Shown: positions 6,524-47,443 of the stretch, in pieces
Position numbering within the stretch: the stretch's first letter is position 1
Layout of the letters: the number at the start of each line of letters is the position of its first letter
DNA from: an uncultured candidatus Porisulfidus sp.
GTDB taxonomy: Bacteria; Pseudomonadota; Gammaproteobacteria; Poriferisulfidales; Poriferisulfidaceae
Assembly: GCA_965199755.1 (NCBI GenBank)
Contig: CBDASZ010000001.1
Span: forward strand, 288,001 to 352,000
Direction of reading: 5' to 3'
Length of the DNA stretch: 64,000 nucleotides
The notes under the pieces: generated by a model
Seen by the model: the letters and a program-made list of their open reading frames with translations, nothing else
Databases searched by the model: none
Told to the model about the DNA's origin: nothing
Program-made: the position numbers and the translations under genes

Positions 6524-7597
6524 TCAAAAGCGAATATGAGCAGAGGCATTGAGGCTGGAGCGGGAGCCGCGCCAGTTATCGATGTGAAACTTGGTGAACG
6601 GCAGACCAGTGGCCTCGAAAAACTGTGGCCAGCCAATACGCTCCACCCAGTCATTGATTCGCTCCCAGTCACGGGCGTCATCGCGATAGGCGCGCAGGAT
6701 GCGCTTGACTACTGCGGTCGCTTCCGGCCAGCGCGGCGGATTGTTGGGGATGCCGGCAGCAACCAGTTTCTGGAAGGTCGGCTTACCACGCGCGTTGGAG
6801 TGATTGCCGCCCACCCAGATGGCCAGTTTGGTGTGTTCCGGGTCGTTGATCTGCATCGGCGGGCAGGGTGGGTAGCAGGCCCCGCAGCAGATACATTTTT
6901 TCTCGTCGACTTCCAGCGAGGGCTTGTTGTTGACCAGTGCCGGGCGGATTGCCGCGACCGGGCAGCGGGCCACTACAGACGGGCGCTCGCAGACGTTGGA
7001 GACCAGATCATGGTTGATCTTGGGCGGTTTGGTGTGCTGCACATTGATGGCAATGTCGCCTTGACCGCCACAGTTGATCTGACAACAGGAGGTGGTGATG
7101 TGCACCCGGTTCGGCATGTTCCAGCCGCGGAATTCCTCAATCAGCTCATCCATCATCGCCTTTACCACGCCGGAGGCGTCGGTGCCAGGGATGTCGCAAT
7201 GCAGCCAGCCTTGGGTATGCGAGATCATGGCGACCGAGTTCTTGGTGCCGCCGACCACGAAGCCGGAATCTTCCAGCGCGTTGATCAGAGGCTCGACCCG
7301 AGACTGATCCGCCACCATGTATTCAATGTTGCTGCGAATCGTGAAACGGACATACCCTTCGCCGTACTGGTCGCCGATGTCACACAACTTGCGCAGGGTG
7401 AACACATCCAGAATACGCTGGGTGCCGGCGCGGACGGTCCAGATGGCCTCGCCGTTGTGTGCGACGTGGCGCAATACGCCAGGACGCGGGTCTTCGTGAT
7501 AGGCCCAGTTCCCGTAATGCTTACGCATCAGGGGATGCAGGTACTGGAAGCCGTCAGGGCATCCAGACTCAATGGGCGGGCGATGCTGTTGTACCAT
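6524..7597 (-). CDS. dsrB: Reverse dissimilatory sulfite reductase beta subunit
   Basis: HTQGWLHC, SCCQINCG, CICCGACYPPC and GIPNNPPRWP motifs. Confidence 0.97.
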   Translation of the reverse strand: MVQQHRPPIESGCPDGFQYLHPLMRKHYGNWAYHEDPRPGVLRHVAHNGEAIWTVRAGTQRILDVFTLRKLCDIGDQYGEGYVRFTIRSNIEYMVADQSRVEPLINALEDSGFVVGGTKNSVAMISHTQGWLHCDIPGTDASGVVKAMMDELIEEFRGWNMPNRVHITTSCCQINCGGQGDIAINVQHTKPPKINHDLVSNVCERPSVVARCPVAAIRPALVNNKPSLEVDEKKCICCGACYPPCPPMQINDPEHTKLAIWVGGNHSNARGKPTFQKLVAAGIPNNPPRWPEATAVVKRILRAYRDDARDWERINDWVERIGWPQFFEATGLPFTKFHIDNWRGSRSSLNASAHIRF

Positions 7598-10357: not shown

Positions 10358-10669
10358 GGGCCGAAGCACCGTCAGGGCTGGAGTTTTAGCGGACTTGATC
10401 TTTGTGATTTCTTGGGTCGCTTCCTATCAAGTGGCTCTGATCCACGCCATTGTTCCAGCCAGTCTTTGCAATGGATTGGTTTTGTTGCAATTGAGGGTTT
10501 CTCCGTGAAAACACTGCGGCTAGGACAATATCATGCTGTGCCTCATATGTATGACGGAATTATTGACATGGGTCAGGGGATTTGGCAATATGGGGCTACT
10601 TAATTGAACAAGTTGATCTGTCACGTGCGGCAGAAATTTCCTTAACTGAACACAATAGGGGTGGGGCAT

Positions 10670-11800
10670 ATGTCTGAAGAAAACAATCGCGTTGTCGAAT
10701 TGACTCAAAAGGTTGAAGAACTGAAAGACAAGGCCTCACGAAGCAAGAGACCGATGAGTGAGGCTACAGTGATATCGGCTCGTGTGATGCCGATATTGAA
10801 TATTTTGGGCTGGGATTCAGAGGAGACGAATGCGGTGGTGCGAGAATATTCTGTCAGAGGCTACAAAGACAAGCGGGCAGATATTGCGCTGGGAGAAAAT
10901 ATGGAGGAATCTGACGGTAAGGTTCTCGTTTTCATTGAAGCCAAGGCTTCGAAGGAGTCGCTGCACAATGGCAAATATATTAGCCAGTTGGAAGATTATT
11001 GCCTAAAGCAACATGTTGATCTGGGGGTTCTGACCAACGGTACCAAATGGGATTTTTATCTGTATCCAAGAGGTGCAGAGCCTCTTCTTGCAGAAGAAAT
11101 TGATATGGAGAATAGTACTGAAACCTGTGTGTCAAAATTTGTTCAAATCCTGAGTCACAAGCACATTTCCGAAAAGCGACATCTACAATTTGCGAACAAA
11201 GCCGCGTTTTGCAGACTGACCGATCAAGTATGGGAGATTTTGCTCAAGGATCGTAAAGACATCAGAGGCCTAGTGCAAAGACACTTGTCTAAGAAGCGTG
11301 GGAAGCCAGTTGCAAAGAAGGAGGAGAAGAAATGGCTTGAAGAGTGGCTTGAAGACAAGATTACGGAATTGCATTCTGTAGCATCTGAAGGGAGGTCGGA
11401 GGAATCCGTCACATCCATCAAGAGTGAGTCTGATGCCAAGCCTAAAGATAAGCCATCCAAAGCTGCCGCATCTAAAGTGACGCATATTGTGGCATTTGGG
11501 GAGCAAATTGAGGTAGAGAAATTTACAGAGGCCCAACTTGCTTTTTTACAAAAATTAGAGTCGGAACATCCGGGCTCACTTGAGCGGTTGGCCCAAGAGC
11601 CTAGGCCTGTTTGCTTTAAGAATACTAACCAGATGAGGGAGAAGGGTGTACCGAAGCAGATTGGGAATATGCCGTATTGGGCCGAAATGCACCGAAGTGC
11701 CGTTGCGCATCGGCAGACATGCCATAAAGCCTTGAAAGCCCTAGGCTTGCCCTTGGGCTCTATTCGGTTTTTTAATGGCGACCATGAGTATAAAGATTGA
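10670..11800 (+). CDS. HsdR-N-like PD-(D/E)XK endonuclease with SeqA-C-like C-terminal domain (copy 2)
   Basis: Tandem paralog of 9242..10357 with near-identical nuclease core; C-terminal PKQIGNMPYW. Confidence 0.75.
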   Translation: MSEENNRVVELTQKVEELKDKASRSKRPMSEATVISARVMPILNILGWDSEETNAVVREYSVRGYKDKRADIALGENMEESDGKVLVFIEAKASKESLHNGKYISQLEDYCLKQHVDLGVLTNGTKWDFYLYPRGAEPLLAEEIDMENSTETCVSKFVQILSHKHISEKRHLQFANKAAFCRLTDQVWEILLKDRKDIRGLVQRHLSKKRGKPVAKKEEKKWLEEWLEDKITELHSVASEGRSEESVTSIKSESDAKPKDKPSKAAASKVTHIVAFGEQIEVEKFTEAQLAFLQKLESEHPGSLERLAQEPRPVCFKNTNQMREKGVPKQIGNMPYWAEMHRSAVAHRQTCHKALKALGLPLGSIRFFNGDHEYKD

Positions 11801-12270: not shown

Positions 12271-13959
12271 TCAGGATTCTGCGGCATCGGTGACAGCACC
12301 TTCCGATGCCGAGATCACACTGCGGGCGTATTTAGCCAGCACTCCGGTTTGATAGCGCGGTTTGTGCAGCTTGAGGTTTTCACGCCGTTGATTGAGTTCT
12401 CGCTTGGGCACTAACAAATTCATCTCCTGCTTGACTGCGTCAATGGAGATTGTGTCGCCGTTGCGCACTAGTGCAAGCGGGCCGCCGACTGCGGCCTCTG
12501 GGGTCACGTGACCGATCACGAACCCGTGTGAGCCACCTGAAAACCGTCCGTCTGTAATGAGCGCCACTTTATCGCCAAGGCCGCAGCCCATGATGGCGGA
12601 GGTTGGAGACAGCATTTCGCGCATGCCTGGTCCGCCGCGTGGTCCCTCGAAGCGGATCACGATGACATCGCCGGCACGGATGCGTCCATCCAGAATTGCG
12701 CGTAGGGCGCGTTCTTCGGAATCAAACGTGCGGGCTCGTCCGGTGAAAGTTTCGCCTTCCTTACCGCTGATTTTGGCAACTGCGCCTTCCGGGGCGAGGT
12801 TGCCGCGCAGGATGACCAGATGTCCGTCAGCCTTGATTGGGTCATTGAGCGGGCGGATGATTTGCTGGCGTTCGGGGTAGTCGGCGACTTCTGCCAGATC
12901 TTCCGCAAGGGTTTTGCCTGTCACCGTCCGGCAACCGCCGTACAGCAGGCCTGCATCCAGCAACCGCTTCATCAGAGGACGGATGCCACCGATGCGCACC
13001 AGTTCCGACATCATGTAGCGTCCGGACGGGCGCAGGTCAGCCAGCACTGGGGTTTTCTCACCGATGCGGGAGAAGTCGTCCAGCGCCAATGGCACGCGCA
13101 TGGAGTGGGCCATTGCCAGCAAGTGCAACACGGCATTGGTGGAGCCGCCGAGTGCGGTGACCACAGTGATCGCATTCAGAAACGCCCGGCGTGTCATGAT
13201 TTTGCGGGGTGTGATACCGAGGCTGAGGAGATTGATGGCAGCCGCGCCGGCGCGTTCACAGTCTTCCCGTTTGGCGCGTGAGGTTGCCATTTGCGCGGAG
13301 CTTCCAGGCAGGCTCATGCCGAGTGTTTCGATAGCCGAAGCCATGGTGTTTGCGGTGTACATGCCGCCGCAGGAGCCGGGGCCGGGGATCGCGCAGGATT
13401 CAATTGCGTTGAGTTCTTTGTTGCTGATTTTTCCTTGCGCGTGTTCGCCGACCGCCTCGAATACCGAGATCACATCAATCTTCTTGCCGCGGTGGTGTCC
13501 TGGTGCGATGGTGCCGCCGTAGACGAATACGGCGGGACGATTCAAGCGGGCGATAGCCATTAGGCAACCGGGCATGTTCTTGTCGCAACCACCGATAGCG
13601 ACCAGCGCGTCGAATCCTTCAGCCGCGGTCACAGTCTCGATGGTGTCGGCGATGAGTTCACGCGACACCAGTGAATATTTCATGCCCTCCGTACCCATCG
13701 AGATACCGTCCGACACGGTGATGGTATTGAAGGTGACGGCCTTGCCGCCTGCGTCATTAGCCCCGGTGGCCGCGTGCTTGGCCAGCTTGTTGATGTGCAT
13801 GTTGCACGGCGTGACTTCGCTCCAGGTCGACGCAATACCAACTTGCGGACGCTGGAAGTCTTTGCTTTCGAAGCCGACGGCGCGCAGCATGGAGCGCGAC
13901 GGCGCGCGCTCAATACCATCGACCAGAATGCTTGAATGGGGGCGGGGAAGTTTGGCCAT
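12271..13959 (-). CDS. ilvD: Dihydroxy-acid dehydratase
   Basis: TPCNMH, SDGISMG, GCDKNMPG and TDGRFSG motifs. Confidence 0.95.
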   Translation of the reverse strand: MAKLPRPHSSILVDGIERAPSRSMLRAVGFESKDFQRPQVGIASTWSEVTPCNMHINKLAKHAATGANDAGGKAVTFNTITVSDGISMGTEGMKYSLVSRELIADTIETVTAAEGFDALVAIGGCDKNMPGCLMAIARLNRPAVFVYGGTIAPGHHRGKKIDVISVFEAVGEHAQGKISNKELNAIESCAIPGPGSCGGMYTANTMASAIETLGMSLPGSSAQMATSRAKREDCERAGAAAINLLSLGITPRKIMTRRAFLNAITVVTALGGSTNAVLHLLAMAHSMRVPLALDDFSRIGEKTPVLADLRPSGRYMMSELVRIGGIRPLMKRLLDAGLLYGGCRTVTGKTLAEDLAEVADYPERQQIIRPLNDPIKADGHLVILRGNLAPEGAVAKISGKEGETFTGRARTFDSEERALRAILDGRIRAGDVIVIRFEGPRGGPGMREMLSPTSAIMGCGLGDKVALITDGRFSGGSHGFVIGHVTPEAAVGGPLALVRNGDTISIDAVKQEMNLLVPKRELNQRRENLKLHKPRYQTGVLAKYARSVISASEGAVTDAAES

Positions 13960-14021
13960 AAAGGTGCTGCGGGCACGAAGTGCGGTTAAAAAGCCCGCCT
14001 ATTCTAGTCTCATACGTTTGC

Positions 14022-14948
14022 TCAGGCGGCTTTGGCGGACGTAGTCATCTCGTGCATTTCGAGTAGCACGCCTTCACGGATTGAACCGTTAGCCGGCTTC
14101 AGCCGCTTGACTTCCAGCAATTCGAACAGCGCATGCAAAATTGCAAGTCCGCCCAGAAACACCTCGACCCGATAGTGATCCAGATGCGTCAGGCGCGCGC
14201 AGACGCGCTTATCAACCAGCACCGCCACCAGTCGATCAATCGCTTCGGCATCAATAGTGCCGTCGGTGTAGCCGAGTTTAATCAGGGTGTTGCTGATGGC
14301 GCGGATGGCCCCGGAGGTGCCGTACAAGACCTGAATGCCTGGAAGATGAATATGCGCCTTGCCGGTCGGCGCGATAATCTCATCGGTGTATTCGATGGCC
14401 GCGTTCCAGTTGTTGAGTCTGAGTCGATCCGTGTGAAAGAAGCGCTCCGTTAATACGGCGCTTCCGACCTGCCAGCTCAGAATGCAACTCGGCCGCGCGG
14501 TGCTGCCGAGAATGAATTCAGTGCTGCTGCCGCCAATATCCAGAATGCAGTTGTCCGGGCCTTGCATGCGCGTGGTTTGCACCGCGCCGCGGTAGATGTA
14601 GTCGCCTTCTTCCTCACTGCTGATCACCCGGATCGGGTGTCCGAGCGCCCGTTCACAGCCGAGCAGAAACCGGTCGTTGCGCTGCAAGCGAAACGCATTG
14701 GTGGCGATGGCGGCGAAGCAGTCAGGTTTGTGCTGCCGGACTACACGAGAGGCTTCTCTCAGACAGTTGAACGCAGCGTGTTGGTACTTGCGGCGCAGAT
14801 CGCCGTTCTTCTTCAGTCCTGAGCCCAGCGAGACGTACTGCTTGAACTTGTCCAGTATCTTGATCTGTCCGTCGTCGTTGACCTGGGCATAGATCATGTG
14901 GAAGCTGTTCGAGCCCAGATCCAGAACGCTATAAGTAGGTTTCATCAA
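14022..14948 (-). CDS. ppx: Exopolyphosphatase Ppx/GppA family (short form)
   Basis: DLGSNSFH, DIGGSSTE and IREG motifs; directly follows ppk1. Confidence 0.88.
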   Translation of the reverse strand: MMKPTYSVLDLGSNSFHMIYAQVNDDGQIKILDKFKQYVSLGSGLKKNGDLRRKYQHAAFNCLREASRVVRQHKPDCFAAIATNAFRLQRNDRFLLGCERALGHPIRVISSEEEGDYIYRGAVQTTRMQGPDNCILDIGGSSTEFILGSTARPSCILSWQVGSAVLTERFFHTDRLRLNNWNAAIEYTDEIIAPTGKAHIHLPGIQVLYGTSGAIRAISNTLIKLGYTDGTIDAEAIDRLVAVLVDKRVCARLTHLDHYRVEVFLGGLAILHALFELLEVKRLKPANGSIREGVLLEMHEMTTSAKAA

Positions 14949-41242: not shown

Positions 41243-41465
41243 GGTGTGGGTAATGGGGCAAGGTGTGTGGTGCCGGGACTGAGCAGGCTTTTCATGGGGC
41301 AGTCTTGAGATTTAATAGAAACTATACCAGCATGTATCTGGCATTAAGCACGGAGGTGTCGGGATCAAGACTGGGTGTATTTGAATGGGACTTATATACA
41401 TAACTTGACAGAGCCTTGAAATGCTATACAAAGCCTGAACAGGTGATTTTGATTTGTAAGATACA

Positions 41466-42964
41466 ATTTCTAATTGCTTTGGCGGTCGCGGTCGCTCCGT
41501 TGGCAGCCCAGGCAGAGACCATCAACCTCTACGGCTGGCAAAACCATTCGTGGGAGTTTGTGGATATTGATGGTGGACGCAGCTTTGATCGCATTCAGTC
41601 GAATGCTGGGCAACATCGGCTTCAGCCGCCAGTGTCGACACCGGCATGAACGGCATCAAGGTCAACTTGCAGTGCGAGCAGTTCACGTTCTACAACCGCT
41701 TACAACCACTTCGCGGGCGGCACCGGCTGGTGCAACCGTAACTCGAAGATCGGTCTGGCTCACCCGCAGATGGGTGAGATCATGTTCGCCACCTGGCTGC
41801 TGCCCTACAACGAAGGCGTAGCGCAGTGGGTTGACCCGTTCTACGATGCCGGCGCGGACTCGCATACCAGCATCATGGGTTCCGTAGGGCCAACACCATC
41901 TTCTATAACAGGTTCTGGTCAGCAGCCTCCGCCTCATCTACAACAGGTTTGATGGTTCCGGACAATAGTTTTTGAGAGGATTTCCTGCACTACGAGCACT
42001 GGCTTCAATCGTCGCCAGGAGAACATCATTCAGTACTGGTCACCGAACTGGAACGGTTTTGTGTTCCGGTTTGCGTGGACGGTCGGCACCCGGGATGAAA
42101 CAGCCGCACCGGTCGGTGGTGGTGAAATCGACCCAGTAATTCGTTCCAGCAGTCTGGCCTACACCAATGGCCCCATGTGGCTGGCCGTCACGTGGCAGGA
42201 TCACGAAGACTGGACTGCAGCTTCAGTCGGTGAGATGGCTTCTTCGGATGCTGAAAGCTGGCGTCTTGCCGGTCGCTACATTGCCGATCTCGGTGATGGC
42301 ATGAGCGTTCAGATCTCGGCCATGTACGAAGATCTCGAATATGAGTTCAATGGAGTCAGCAACTTTGATGCTGCTATGGGTGCTTTCGGATATGGCAATT
42401 CGATGAGCTATACCGGCATTAGCCCATCTTCTCGTGCCGATGTCTTTCGTACTCAGCGTACAGGAAGTGGTTCCTCGAACTATTGTCTGGTGCCGATCGG
42501 TCTACTTGTGAGGGACACAGAGATTGCGGCAACGACATGGCGAAACAAAAACTGGAGTATGAACACCAGGTACTGAGGCTGGCATGGCAAAGTTGTATCG
42601 CTGGCACGTCGCAATCATGCGACCGCAGGCAGCAATGTAACGGTCGAACGCGAGGCCTGGATGATTTCCGGCAAGATCAAGTTCGGCGGTCCGGTTGACT
42701 TCCGCTTCTCCTATATGGACGCGGATGATCTGGAGGTTTCCTGCAGCGTTTGCTCAGGCGACTGGGATAACACTGCTGCCGATGCGTGGAACGTAGGCAT
42801 GTTCTACACCATGCCGGCCGGTACGGAACTGCGTCTGACCTATTCCGAAGTCGACAACGACGCAAACGGAACCTATGGTCAGGGTATTTCCGGCACGGGG
42901 CTTGGCTCAGCGCGGAGGTGAAGTTGAAATGTTCGCACTCGGTATCGTGCACTGGTTCGACTAA
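41466..42964 (+). pseudogene. Porin cassette A (start-less and frameshifted as assembled)
   Basis: FLIALAVAVAPLAAQA signal remnant, NLYG, NRNSKIGL, RRQENIIQYWSPNWNGF and C-terminal ALGIVHWFD*; spread over several frames. Confidence 0.8.
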
Positions 42965-42996
42965 TCCGATTAGTTGATCTATAACCGGCATACAAG

Positions 42997-43025
42997 ACAG
43001 GCGCCCTTCGGGGCGCCTGTTTTTT
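42997..43025 (+). terminator. Rho-independent terminator of porin cassette A
   Basis: ACAGGCGCCC-TTCG-GGGCGCCTGT followed by a T run. Confidence 0.9.
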
Positions 43026-43234
43026 ATGAGTTCGCTTGCTGATACCTTGGTACGAGCAGCACATATTTAAGATCAGAATATACGTTTGAATTGCAACAAG
43101 AAGGGGACAATTCCTTTTTTACTGCCTGTGCGGACTTCTTGAAAGAGAAGGGCCTATTTCTCCGCGCGAGCAGATATTTCTCAATAGCACAATTTTATGA
43201 GGTCTGAGCGTGTTCACCAATACGCTTGAACAAC

Positions 43235-43263
43235 AAAAAACAGGCGCCCCGAAGGGCGCCTGT
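43235..43263 (-). terminator. Rho-independent terminator of porin cassette B
   Basis: Same hairpin as 42997..43025, in inverted orientation. Confidence 0.9.
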
Positions 43264-43292
43264 CTTGTTAAGCCGGTTATTGATTGATGCAA

Positions 43293-44728
43293 TCAATCGA
43301 ACCAGTGCACGATGCCGAGAGCAAACATCTCAACCTTTAACACCTGCAGTACCCAGACCCGTACCGGAAACACCCTGACCGTAGGTTCCGTTTGCGTCGT
43401 TGTCAACTTCGGAATAGGTCAGACGCAGTTCCGTACCCGCCGGCATGGTGTAGAACATGCCTACATTCCACGCATCGGCAGCAGTGTTATCCCAGTCGCC
43501 TGAGCACGCGCTGCAGGAAACCTCCAAATCATCCGCATCCATATAGGAGAAGCGGAAGTCAACCGGACCGCCGAACTTGATCTTGCCGGAAATCATCCAG
43601 GCCTCGCGTTCGACCGTTACATTGCTGCCTGCGGTCGCATGATTGCGACGTGTAGCGTGTTCTCCGTTTTGAGCCGCCATCATATTCTTGAACTCAGTCT
43701 TTTGTTTCGCCATGGGGTTGCCGCAAAGTGCATCATCAGGTAGATCCTTCGGCACCAGACAACCCGTTTTGCCACTTATTGCTATGCGATAGTCGTAACT
43801 GGAACTTGAATCGTCGCTAACGCTGTCATAGCTCATCGAATTGCCATATCCGAAAGCACCCATCGCGGCATCAAAGTTGCTGACTCCATTGAACTCATAC
43901 TCAAGATCTTCGTACATGGCCGAGATCTGAACGCTCATGCCATCACCGAGGTCGGCAATGTAGCGACCGGCAAGACGCCAGCTTTCAGCATCAGAAGAAG
44001 CCATCTCACCGACTGAAGCTGCAGTCCAGTCTTCGTGATCCTGCCACGTGACGGCCATCCACATGCGGGCCATTGGTGTAGGCCAGACTGCTGGAACGAA
44101 TTACTGGGTCGATTTCACCATCACCGACCGGCTGTTTGAAACTTTCGTTTCGTCCCGGATAGCCGGGCGTCCAAGCAAACCGGAACACAAAACCGTTCCA
44201 GTTTGGTGACCAGTACTGAATGATGTTCTCCTGGCGACGGTTGATAACTGCCGCTTGTGCCTCTCGCGAATCCCGGATTGTAGTAGGCTTGACCAGAACC
44301 TGCGCCCACGCCTCCCATGATGCTGGTATGCGAGTCTGCACCGGCATCATAGAACGGGTCAACCCACTGCGCTACGCCTTCGTTGTAGGGCAGCAGCCAG
44401 GTGGCGAACATGAATTCACCCATCTGTGGATGAGCCAAACCGATCTTGGAGTTACGGTTGCACCAGCCGTGTTGCCGCCCGCGAAATCCGTGAAGCGGTT
44501 GTAGAAGGTGAACTGCTCGCACTGCAAGTTGACCTTGATGCCGTTCATGCCGGTGTCCATGCTGGCGGCTGAAGCCGATGTTGCCCAGCATTCGACTGAA
44601 TGCGGTCAAAGCTGCGTCCACCATCAACATCGACAAACTCCCACGAATGGTTTTGCCAGCCGTAGAGGTTGATGGTCTCTGCCTGGGCTGCCAACGGAGC
44701 GACCGCGACCGCCAAAGCAATTAGAAAT
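43293..44728 (-). pseudogene. Porin cassette B (start-less and frameshifted as assembled)
   Basis: Inverted paralog of cassette A with the same motifs, ending ALGIVHWFD*; in-frame TGA upstream with no in-frame ATG. Confidence 0.8.
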
Positions 44729-44815
44729 CCGCTTCTACCTGCAACCAGAACCTGCTCAAAACTGGCCCATCATCCCTGTCGCAATTTGACTTTTCGAGAC
44801 TGCAAGAATTGAGAA

Positions 44816-46267
44816 TCAGCGCAGCGCGCGAAAACGCCGCAGGGCCTCATCTCTCCCGGCCGCGAGGTCCAGCACGGGGAAAGGATAGTCTCCTCCCAAA
44901 GTCACTTCGGCCTGCTGCAAAACAGGTGCTGGAGCGCGCCAAGGCTCATGGATATGCCGATCAGGCAGTTTCGCGAGTTCGGGTACCCAAGTGCGCACAT
45001 ACTTGCCTTCGGGGTCGAAGCGACTGCCTTGTCGGACAGGGCTGAACATCCGAAAATAAGGCGCAGCATCCACGCCGCAACCAGCAGTCCACTGCCAGCC
45101 CATGGTGTTGTTGGCCAGATCCGCGTCCAGCAGGGTGTCCCAGAACCAGCGGGCACCTTCCAGCCAATGCACCAGCCCGTTCTTAGTTAGCACTGAAGCC
45201 GTCAGCATGCGAATCCGATTGTGCATCCAGCCGGTGCGCCAGAGTTGCCGCATCCCGGCATCCACCAGTGGAATTCCGGTTTGACCCAGTGTCCATGCTG
45301 AGAAAAGTTCAGGGTTACGCTCCCAACTAAAAGCATTGAATCGCTCGTCGAACGGTTGTTCGGCAGTATGCGGCAGGTGGTACAGGATATTACTAGCGAA
45401 CTCCCGCCAGATTAACTGGCGCAAATAGGCATCCGCTCCATGAGTGACATCTATGGTATCTCTGCTATCGCAAGTCGCTTCCAGCACCTCGTGCCACACC
45501 TGTCGGGCAGACACTTCTCCGAAATGCAAGTGTGGTGACAGACCCGACACACCGTCTTCATAAGGGAGATCGCGTCTGCTGCCGTATTCAGCGATTGCGT
45601 CATCACCAAGGAAATCGCGCAACCTAACCATGGCCGCCTTTTCTCCCGGTTGCCAGTACTCAAGGAATTCGCGATGCCAGTTAAGCGGTGACATCAGACC
45701 CAGTTCCTCCAGAGGAACGGAGCGAACCCCCTGAGGCAATGGTGGGAGGGCATCAGGGCTCGCCGCAGGGCGCGCCTCCGGGCCAGTCAGCAGGTAGCGC
45801 TTGTAGAACGGGGTGAAGACCCGATAAATGCCGCCGTCATCCTTCAGCACAGTCCCCGGTTCACGCAGCAAGGAGCCGGGACAAGTACGCACTTCCGCAC
45901 CCGCGTCGACCAATGCTTTCTCAACAGTCTCATCCCGGGCCCGAATGACAGGTTCATACCGCCGATTCCAGCACACCAGCGCAGCCTTGTTTTCACGCAC
46001 AACTTCCGCCAGCACTTCCTGACTGGATCCCATACGAATCACCAGGCCCGATCCCTTTTCCTGAAGCGTCATGCTCAGAGATGCGAGACTGCGGTGCAAC
46101 CACCATTTTGAGGCGGCTCCAGGCTGCCACGGAGCTTCTTCATCGGGCGCGTGAATGTAGAGAGGAATGACCCGCTCAGCACGATCCAGAGCCTCCAGCA
46201 GCGCCGGGTTGTCAGCGAGTCGAAGGTCGCGACGGAACCAGATAATAGCCGTGTGATACCTAGACAA
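44816..46267 (-). CDS. phrB: Deoxyribodipyrimidine photolyase (class I CPD)
   Basis: WFRRDLRLADN, LSPHLHFGE, GWMHNR and DAAPYFR motifs. Confidence 0.92.
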   Translation of the reverse strand: MSRYHTAIIWFRRDLRLADNPALLEALDRAERVIPLYIHAPDEEAPWQPGAASKWWLHRSLASLSMTLQEKGSGLVIRMGSSQEVLAEVVRENKAALVCWNRRYEPVIRARDETVEKALVDAGAEVRTCPGSLLREPGTVLKDDGGIYRVFTPFYKRYLLTGPEARPAASPDALPPLPQGVRSVPLEELGLMSPLNWHREFLEYWQPGEKAAMVRLRDFLGDDAIAEYGSRRDLPYEDGVSGLSPHLHFGEVSARQVWHEVLEATCDSRDTIDVTHGADAYLRQLIWREFASNILYHLPHTAEQPFDERFNAFSWERNPELFSAWTLGQTGIPLVDAGMRQLWRTGWMHNRIRMLTASVLTKNGLVHWLEGARWFWDTLLDADLANNTMGWQWTAGCGVDAAPYFRMFSPVRQGSRFDPEGKYVRTWVPELAKLPDRHIHEPWRAPAPVLQQAEVTLGGDYPFPVLDLAAGRDEALRRFRALR

Positions 46268-46484: not shown

Positions 46485-46579
46485 GGCTATTCCAGCGTAC
46501 CCGTGGTTGTATGTAGGATAATGACACCCGGGTTTCGCGCCGTTTGCCGATTTCCTCCCTAATACCCTCACTGAACACC

Positions 46580-47443
46580 ATGAAGAACCTGCTGATCTAC
46601 CTCGATACGGACGCGCAGCCGTCCGCGTTTGATCAGGTTGTCGCCCATGACGCCGGCGCCGACGCGGTGTTGGCTTATGGCTCAGTGACCCCGGAAAACT
46701 GCTTCCCTCTGGTCGAAGGCGCGATCTACACCCGTGCGCCCAAACACAAGCACCATACCGCTATTCTGGTCGGCGGCAGCAATCTGGACCACGCGCAAGC
46801 CGTGGAGGATGCCGTGCGCGGTCAGTTTTTTGCTGACTTTCGCGTGTCGGTCGGACTTGACGCCAATGGGTGCAATACCACCGCGGCGGCCGCCGTCGCC
46901 ACGCTGGGAGGGGCGCATCCGCTCAAGGGATCCCGCGTGGTGGTGCTGGCGGGCACCGGTCCGGTGGGACAACGCGCAGCGCTACTGTTCGCCCAAGCCG
47001 GAGCCAAGGTGTACTTAAGCTCACGCAAACTGGAGCGGGCCGAACAGGCGTGTGACGCCATCGAGCACCGTTTTGGGGCTTCCGTGTTTCCGGTTGCGGC
47101 GTCAACTGCCGACAGCACAGCCGATGCCATTGAAGGCGCGGCGGTGGTTTTGGCAACCGGTCAGACGGGCGTACAACTCTTGCCCGGAACCGTTCGTGTG
47201 AACAGTTCCGCGTTGCGCGTGGTTGGAGACGCCGGCACCTGTCCGCCTCTGGGAGTGGAAGGGCTGCAACTCCAAGACAAGGGGCGAGAGGATGAAGGGG
47301 TGTTGCTGTATGGCGGACTCACCATCGGTGCGCTCAAACTGCACACGCAACGTGAAATGATCGCGCGACTATTCGCACGCAATGATCAGTTCTGGGACGC
47401 CCCGGAAATCTTCGCGCTCGCCCAAACTCTATACAACGCCTAG
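46580..47443 (+). CDS. mtdA: Methylene-H4F/H4MPT dehydrogenase (MtdA-like)
   Basis: DTDAQPSAFD...GAIYTR...DANGCNTTAAA and GTGPVG resemble Methylorubrum MtdA. Confidence 0.8.
   Translation: MKNLLIYLDTDAQPSAFDQVVAHDAGADAVLAYGSVTPENCFPLVEGAIYTRAPKHKHHTAILVGGSNLDHAQAVEDAVRGQFFADFRVSVGLDANGCNTTAAAAVATLGGAHPLKGSRVVVLAGTGPVGQRAALLFAQAGAKVYLSSRKLERAEQACDAIEHRFGASVFPVAASTADSTADAIEGAAVVLATGQTGVQLLPGTVRVNSSALRVVGDAGTCPPLGVEGLQLQDKGREDEGVLLYGGLTIGALKLHTQREMIARLFARNDQFWDAPEIFALAQTLYNA

Follow-up and report, generated by a model that had tools for sequence, protein, structure and literature searches.

Two convergent porin genes, A (+) and B (−), lie in inverted orientation in the window, the 64,000-nt stretch of an uncultured Candidatus Porisulfidus genome analysed here, and become homologous at one fixed base within their signal-peptide codons. 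The same genome encodes an IS110-family recombinase, and the conserved region beside the recombinase gene is predicted to fold into an RNA with an internal loop whose two sides match the halves of this porin site. Judged from these sequences, the chance is about even that start-bearing flanks and porin bodies are shuffled by RNA-guided recombination at the signal-peptide site, gene conversion acting alongside. A fuller proposal, which we would put just short of even, is that a domesticated bridge-RNA recombinase moves one start-bearing 5′ end among up to 10 full-length porin bodies throughout the genus, and that the pair in the window represents the minimal case, two cassettes on which the recombinase acts in trans. 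The genome of the window (G000) comprises 1.39 Mb in four contigs (C1–C4); G001 and similar handles denote genomes of relatives, L numbers denote fetched loci and P numbers denote porin homologs from databases.

Both porin genes are full-length (A, 41449..42964 (+), located by tblastn against the intact homolog P0001, model and fold matches; B, 43293..44728 (−), without a start codon upstream of the site), and their conserved blocks are 92–98% identical. A repeat search of the window recovered inverted blocks of 301, 253, 236, 165, 83 and 65 nt (92–98% complementary) spanning 41466–42905 and 43352–44728. The terminator hairpins of A (42992..43025 (+), inverted repeat I8) and B (43235..43268 (−)) are 34 nt each and 100% complementary. 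A first-pass annotation of this DNA had reported an inverted convergent pair with near-identical blocks and identical terminators, in which homology begins at a single base, and both observations were borne out: the repeat search and a global alignment place the edge at the same letters, ATTTCTAATTGC, at 41466 and 44728. Site A (ATTTCTAATTGCT, 41466..41478 (+), CT core at 41470–71) starts with the first homologous base and is the predicted target of the recombinase RNA. Site B (44716..44728 (−)), identified by repeat search, alignment and word search, is inverted relative to site A. The 12-mer of the site occurs only twice in G000, at A and B, and the two copies do not differ in the ~95 bases that follow the site.

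Upstream of the site, the copies have different flanks. The candidate expression flank of A (41405..41465 (+)) contains TTGACA (41405–10), TGnTATACA (41422–30), a Shine-Dalgarno (SD)-like AGGTGAT (41441–41447) and, after one base, a TTG start at 41449; the N-terminus of P0001 has the same six residues as this TTG start would give. The 87-nt flank of B (44729..44815 (−)) extends from the photolyase stop (44816) to the site and contains no terminator-like site and no in-frame ATG, GTG or TTG before a TGA 18 codons upstream. The earlier description of both copies as start-less is thus correct for B and incorrect for A. A strict promoter consensus scan gave nothing upstream of A or B. From the sequence, we infer that the flank of A is the expression flank.

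Porin matches were present in all 15 genus relatives searched for porin and recombinase, with up to 20 matched stretches in one genome. We tabulated 37 copies from 17 regions of eight relatives. In eight relatives and G000 the homology of paralogs begins at the same base, (CC)ATTTCTAAT, the exception being G005 (TCCCTAAT). A canonical start, AGGAG followed by ATG (Met-Lys/Arg-Lys-Pro), precedes 9 of the 37 copies, and three more, all in G005, have ATG without AGGAG. The remaining 25 have neither SD nor ATG, and 16 of these lack any in-frame start before a stop, a stop codon often standing in place of the ATG. Reading frames were open to the C-terminal GIVHWFD in 35 of 37 copies, and 14 of the 16 copies with no possible upstream start are open for 1.3–1.9 kb. 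One further copy, in G012, lacks the site altogether. In a set of 100 database homologs whose N-terminus is present, 25 have the canonical start and 60 have gene calls that begin internally. Convergent porin pairs number 11 in five genomes, G000 included, and exactly one member is canonical in four of the nine convergent pairs of recombinase-bearing relatives.

No recombinase gene stands beside the pair in the window, as the first-pass annotation had stated, but one does exist in the genome, on contig C4. This gene (C4 13121–14293 (−)) is intact and single-copy, and its product matches NF033542 ('IS110 family RNA-guided transposase') with 225 bits against a cut-off of 140, over 341 of 343 profile positions. 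The G001 ortholog, a 390-aa IS110-family protein matching PF01548 (7e-17) and PF02371 (3.3e-18), the DEDD RuvC-like and Tnp domains, is encoded in the spacer that separates two divergent porins, one canonical and one start-less. The recombinase alignment shows the first D and E motifs, and a phmmer search against PDB gave no match. Besides G000, 12 of the 15 genus relatives each carry one ortholog (69–93% identity to that of G001), two genomes also hold one more distant paralogue (~52–53% identity), and 37 genomes searched from the order's other families yielded none. In 10 of 13 genomes, the ortholog has porin genes as neighbours. Among ten orthologs, dN/dS was 0.03–0.13 (0.07–0.13 for G000 against its relatives), with synonymous sites near or beyond saturation; the recombinase is under strong purifying selection. 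In G000 its start overlaps the kdsA stop (C4 ~14291–14295); synteny with relatives breaks off at precisely this point, and the gene appears to lie within a host operon, at the junction of a rearrangement.

The recombinase gene and a conserved structured region 3′ of it together occupy C4 ~12852–14293 (−). This region, ~240 nt downstream of the open reading frame (ORF), was conserved in all ten genomes aligned, and the region upstream of the ORF was not conserved and offered no RNA candidate. The RNAalifold consensus has a 29-pair closing stem and two arms. Pairing holds in 96.2% of cells and both sides have changed in 32 of the 70 pairs, values reached by none of 500 shuffles, with slid controls pairing at 35–44%; the structure was derived from the same alignment as the covariation test, which favours the structure. 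The G000 region folds with z = −4.0. Frequent G-U pairs fit an RNA read from the same strand as the recombinase. No Rfam family matched the G001 locus or the recombinase locus of G000; the scan gave only two sub-threshold, terminator-like matches.

Arm 1 of the consensus contains a 10 × 10 unpaired internal loop (alignment columns 50–59 and 115–124). Its 5′ side, GGCATTTCTA, equals the left half of the porin site plus CT in the same sense, and its 3′ side, CAATTAGACA, equals the reverse complement of CT plus the right half. The loop cores ATTTCTA and TTAGA are invariant among the ten genomes. The porin site itself is 12–14 nt long, reads ATTT-CT-AATTGC and lies within the signal-peptide codons; the loop matches ATTT-CT-AAT(T/C)G. 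The 11-mer CCATTTCTAAT had 21 matches in five genomes, 18 of them at porin 5′ ends, and its reversed control had two. Bridge RNAs are described as having a left and a right guide that both include the core dinucleotide (PMC11208160), and an RNA region downstream of the ORF as typical of IS1111-type elements (PMC11187229). In its sequence, the predicted arm 1 loop is laid out like the target loop of a bridge RNA. The complete single contig of G005 yielded neither the recombinase nor the RNA region; all four porins of this genome have their own ATG, and their site differs.

These elements suggest a simple switch. The inverted sites (41466–78 (+) and 44716–28 (−)) flank one segment, with AGGTGAT and TTG on the A side and a start-less flank on the B side. 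A complex of recombinase and RNA would recombine the porin sites, and recombination between the inverted sites A and B would flip the 3.26-kb segment 41466–44728. After the flip, body B would stand behind the flank of A with its SD-like motif and TTG, and body A behind the start-less flank of B, giving a porin switch with two states. The copies may additionally be homogenised, and their loops reshuffled, by homologous recombination or gene conversion between the conserved barrel blocks. We infer recombination at the site, inversion and transcription of the conserved RNA region from the arrangement of these sequences. The exchange of 3′ halves between inverted arms proposed earlier would give way here to a swap of whole bodies, the recombinase RNA pointing to the 5′ site.

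What such a switch would exchange is a hypervariable surface protein. A search with the longest ORF piece in the window returned 333 relatives at E ≤ 0.001; the best 120 of the 333 are 435–794 aa long and mostly carry Porin_4. The window fragments themselves match Porin_4 (PF13609) weakly (20.0 and 19.4 bits, under the 27-bit cut-off), and intact homologs at 58–86% identity have precomputed PF13609 assignments; P0001 has no NCBIfam match. An AlphaFold2 model of P0001, of moderate confidence (pLDDT 61.8, pTM 0.61), consists of 16 strands joined by long and short connections in strict alternation, and its best Foldseek matches are Omp32, VhChiP, OmpF and PorB (E 3.5e-12 to 1e-8, TMt 0.59–0.69). 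Read from the sequence, the N-terminus is an AxA-type Sec signal peptide (APLAAQA, then ETINLY).

The first-pass annotation had named three divergent segments and suggested modelling the barrel to place them. The global alignment agrees on all three and adds a fourth small patch at ~41702–41722. The main segments correspond to distal loop L3 (41886..42005 (+) in A, where it is garbled; 44244–44305 in B), loop L4 (42087..42108 (+); 44132–44162 in B) and loop L6 (42412..42605 (+); 43652–43827 in B). Variable segments map to connections L2, L3 (distal), L4 and L6 of the 16-strand P0001 model, all on the long-loop side, which in porins is generally the extracellular side. The divergent segments are thus modelled as long loops of the extracellular type. 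Across the porin family, L6 ranges from ~60 to 300 residues. P0001 and P0002 each lie on a 9,998-nt ENA contig, probably the same one, from a strain very close to G000. P0002, in the B position, has the same L3 loop as P0001, in the A position, and a long, unrelated L6; it differs from copy B of the window in both L3 and L6. These combinations suggest that loop modules have been reshuffled between close strains.

The evidence from the genus also bears on a more conservative explanation, one we think rather unlikely: that these are ordinary paralogous porins subject to gene conversion, each expressed alone, and that the RNA of a resident IS110-type element happens to target the porin 5′ site. 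On this account A would be translated from its TTG, and B from an internal or non-canonical start or by read-through from the photolyase gene. Signal-peptide sequences are genome-specific yet common to all paralogs within a genome, which, as far as sequence can tell, shows the paralogs to be under concerted evolution, and gene finders call internal starts in 60 of the 100 homologs. The recombinase module occurs in at least three genomic contexts and so has moved. Against this account, a signal peptide begun at an internal start would be only 12 residues long, uncharged in its N-region and without an SD before it, and 16 copies have no possible upstream start although 14 of them are still open for 1.3–1.9 kb. 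G005, where no recombinase was found, is the genome with ATG on all four copies. The element was never inserted at the porin site in the genomes examined, and its junctions in G000 carry no site-like sequence. Its single copy, the strong purifying selection and its place beside porins in 10 of 13 genomes likewise fit poorly with a chance resident.

Ordinary paralogs are also suggested by the L6 loops, and with this observation we come to the points that weigh against RNA-guided switching. The L6 type at the canonical start is common to G001, G012, G007 and G003 (43–72% identity); because it travels with the canonical start, the pairing of promoter and body appears stable from species to species. 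Just one guide loop of the RNA is conserved, the arm 2 loops (columns 138–212) not being conserved among the ten genomes, and covariation of guide with site does not extend past ATTTCT and CTAAT. Guide and site mismatch in G013, and the segment resembling a right target guide in G000 requires a G-T pair. The recombinase is not near porins in G000 and G015, and the consensus scan found no strict sigma-70 consensus upstream of A. No direct sign of switching emerged, and no contig of four public short-read runs shows both orientations, although contigs cannot phase the ~95 identical bases after the site. Finally, P0051 and P0131 have identical bodies in a canonical and a start-less position; the two may stem from duplicate gene calls on a single contig or from gene conversion, and on sequence they appear to suit non-reciprocal gene conversion better than reciprocal inversion.

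Gene conversion among the copies is likely as a second process beside RNA-guided switching, given the genome-specific signal peptides together with identical bodies with and without a canonical start. P0009 is 100% identical over 586 residues to P0126, the canonical copy of G007, and is called eight residues shorter in another assembly; P0009 could be the canonical G007 body on a start-less flank, a signature of switching. A scan of JGI metagenomes (55 loci, ~10 of them close) gave no identical body on different flanks. Two comparisons that had seemed informative were set aside. The spacer of G008 and G003 is inverted relative to that of G001, G007 and G012 with respect to the outer flanks, which we considered as proof of switching at the 5′ site, but L6 moves with the promoter, and an inversion of the entire porin-spacer-porin unit explains the difference better. 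The 100/100 identity upstream between L043 and G001 was likewise dropped as evidence of switching, as it reflects local conservation in a locus otherwise ~88% identical.

Several individual loci deserve mention. The 100 nt upstream of the start-less site are 100% identical between L043 (2910–3009) and L027 (11465–11564), in a locus otherwise ~86–90% identical, which suggests a constrained element in the 'silent' flank. In L025 (G009, near 6911 (−)) and L030 (G008, near 13361 (−)), start-less copies have an ATG followed by five A instead of six, which shifts the canonical ATG from the reading frame; slipped-strand phase variation could explain this, as could a homopolymer error of long-read assemblies. 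L023 (G015) contains three tandem porins (sites at ~8225, 12726 and 16587 (−)) with an identical 75-nt upstream flank and a TTG seven codons before the site. In such a direct-repeat layout, site-specific recombination would excise circles and not invert. A 306-aa protein encoded in the spacer of L027 (G001, 10565–11485 (−)) has a weak BRCT match (19.6 bits, below cut-off), and its gene is present in the spacers of several relatives and absent from the 2-kb spacer of G009.

The first-pass annotation had proposed that A and B are silent cassettes donating to a porin expressed elsewhere. Searches of the whole 1.39-Mb genome by blastn and at the protein level found A and B as the only porin copies and no canonical expression locus, an outcome that the annotation itself had named as refuting its proposal, so the donor role did not withstand the analysis. 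Both are complete genes with terminators that lack at most their first four codons, and hence are not partial cassettes. What survives of its broader idea, porin variation by way of start-less copies, is a multi-copy family with variable long loops, most copies without Met-Lys and one fixed base of homology; the mechanism it offered for G000 does not survive. We therefore consider it improbable that the two copies are silent donors for gene conversion into an expression locus, perhaps with homologous recombination between the inverted arms as well. Such a scheme would agree with the few start-bearing and many start-less copies across the genus, with identical bodies with and without a canonical N-terminus, and with the mosaicism of P0001 and P0002, which have L3 in common and different L6. 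Contigs of low depth that join A-like and B-like blocks are weakly in its favour. The scheme is opposed by the lack of any third copy or canonical start in G000, by the completeness of the copies, their own terminators and the SD-like motif and TTG of A, and it leaves unexplained why the loop of the recombinase RNA matches the site. The opposite-strand joints between A and B at 42007/44313, 42218/43925, 42450/43657 and 42649/43843 are single contigs of depth 2.9–8.4 with short sides and were not used.

In the ORF listing of the window, both porin copies are fragmented and the neighbouring genes are intact. By tblastn with P0001, most of A falls in a single frame beginning at TTG 41449, with three out-of-frame stretches after which the main frame is regained and one further shift before the last strand (breaks at ~41607–41700, 41886–42005, 42430–42600 and 42912), and B has at least six frame changes. 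Despite many indels, the middle block of A has 139 consecutive residues identical to P0001 (499 aa, nearly the same allele). When A is read through, three in-frame stops occur, all TGA; recoding of TGA was rejected, since the homologous residues lie in other frames and the neighbouring genes read normally with table 11.

To these breaks we compared public contigs from the four short-read runs, which come from two studies and include two RNA libraries; extra letters were counted at the breaks among the contig matches listed, and ~42389–42630, which lacks contig cover, was excluded from the evidence, as were runs X2, X4 and X5. Public runs labelled as sponge metagenome, and two metatranscriptomes, contain at most 47% of sampled window words. 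Extra letters of the window were absent from contigs of all four runs at 41607–10 (one letter), 41623–26 (one), 41691 (ten) and 42912 (one), and the ten at 41691 were left out at full depth in each run. An extra letter at 43335 was absent in one run, and those at 44132, 44137 and 44139 in two. Contigs differ from the window at 0–1 positions in the unique flanks (41300–41493 and 44701–44900) and in the B loop at 43623–43857, the last being identical in all four runs, RNA libraries included. The flank-A and flank-B junctions are each identical in contigs of two studies. In L3 of A, the loose ends of one DNA and one RNA contig run on into an intact P0001-like loop. Because the contigs of four runs and two studies omit the extra letters at every listed break, and because the breaks are indels without substitutions confined to a repeated hypervariable gene, the sequence evidence indicates that the frame breaks in A and B are most likely assembly errors, introduced in the consensus. 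RNA-library contigs cover parts of both porin bodies and not the intergenic flanks, which hints that the bodies are transcribed, although contigs can neither prove this nor assign the strain.

It is very improbable, on this evidence, that A and B are genuine pseudogenes undergoing decay in a genome of reduced size, with the intact versions in public contigs derived from other strains. G000 is the smallest genome of the genus (1.39 Mb, the others 1.6–2.0 Mb), its canonical copy has been lost, and contigs over the N-terminal half of B differ from the window by ~5%, all of which decay would accommodate. It would not account for indels vastly outnumbering substitutions or for the 139 residues that A has in common with P0001. 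In run X3, moreover, a contig over 41520–41809 is as deep as the unique flank (10 against 10.1) and is without the 12 extra letters. The neighbouring genes are intact, as is the recombinase, with its dN/dS of 0.07–0.13 against relatives. Hypervariable multi-copy genes can evidently be corrupted in metagenome assemblies in a way that mimics pseudogenes.

Among the closest known parallels to RNA-guided porin switching is the pilin inversion of Moraxella lacunata and M. bovis (tfpQ/tfpI). There, two opposed variable bodies are joined by a crossover inside the 5′ coding region, and one fixed start serves either body. Its recombinase, Piv, is of the same DEDD IS110/IS492 lineage; to our knowledge, no guide RNA has been described for it. 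Piv is described as a relative of IS110/IS1111 transposases that catalyses inversion, and proteins of the Piv/IS492/IS621 branch are 315–330 aa long (PMC11187229). The system described here differs in its targets, porins and not pilins, in the length of its recombinase (~390 aa against 315–330), in its conserved guide-like RNA, in a gene that is not adjacent in G000 and in having up to 10 copies per genome. Inversion has been described for Piv, whereas here it is predicted from sequence.

Selfish IS110/IS1111 elements find their targets by means of bridge or seek RNAs, as described in 2024. With the IS621-type bridge RNA (seekRNA) recombinases, the genus recombinase has in common its NCBIfam family, a structured RNA region beside the ORF and an internal loop with a same-sense left guide and a reverse-complement right guide, both with the CT core; with IS1111-type elements, it has in common an RNA region downstream of the gene. 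Unlike IS110/IS1111 elements, it is single-copy, occupies an orthologous place in most species and is not inserted at its predicted target; it has no conserved donor loop, and in G000 the ORF start overlaps the kdsA stop. By these sequence features the genus recombinase looks domesticated rather than mobile.

Other surface-variation systems resemble the porins in part. In the vsa/HvsR system of Mycoplasma pulmonis, one 5′ end with promoter and start serves many silent bodies through a short site just inside the coding region. Such shufflons likewise have bodies lacking only the 5′ end and copies in both orientations, but a tyrosine recombinase acts there on lipoproteins, with no RNA guide, and the targets here are beta-barrel porins. 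Neisseria pilE/pilS, Borrelia vlsE and Anaplasma msp2 vary by gene conversion from silent cassettes. Like the porins, they combine conserved flanks with variable surface segments and have few expressed copies beside many that are not; they differ in that the copies here are whole genes with terminators, G000 has no separate expression locus, and a site-specific recombinase with a matching RNA is present.

A search of full-text literature found no report of a host-domesticated bridge RNA or of one tied to surface variation, and a term search of one survey of programmed inversions gave no occurrence of porin, IS110, Piv, DEDD or signal peptide (PMC9881135). If the proposal is correct, this would be the first natural host function known to us for a bridge-RNA system, as well as a porin shufflon, and an example of a natural RNA-guided inversion system with a defined short target. 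It would also account for most porin copies being start-less yet open. Uncultured sponge symbionts with genomes of 1.4–2.0 Mb may in this way vary a major surface protein against phages or host recognition. The proposal further raises the question of whether Piv-type invertases use RNA.

Two minor observations concern the wider genome. The last 18 bases of contig C1 are identical to the first 18 of C2, so that, on sequence, the 3′ end of C1 probably abuts the 5′ end of C2. Downstream of the photolyase gene, a 299-aa ORF (46544–47443 (+)) resembles, by eye, an NAD(P)-dependent dehydrogenase of C1 metabolism.

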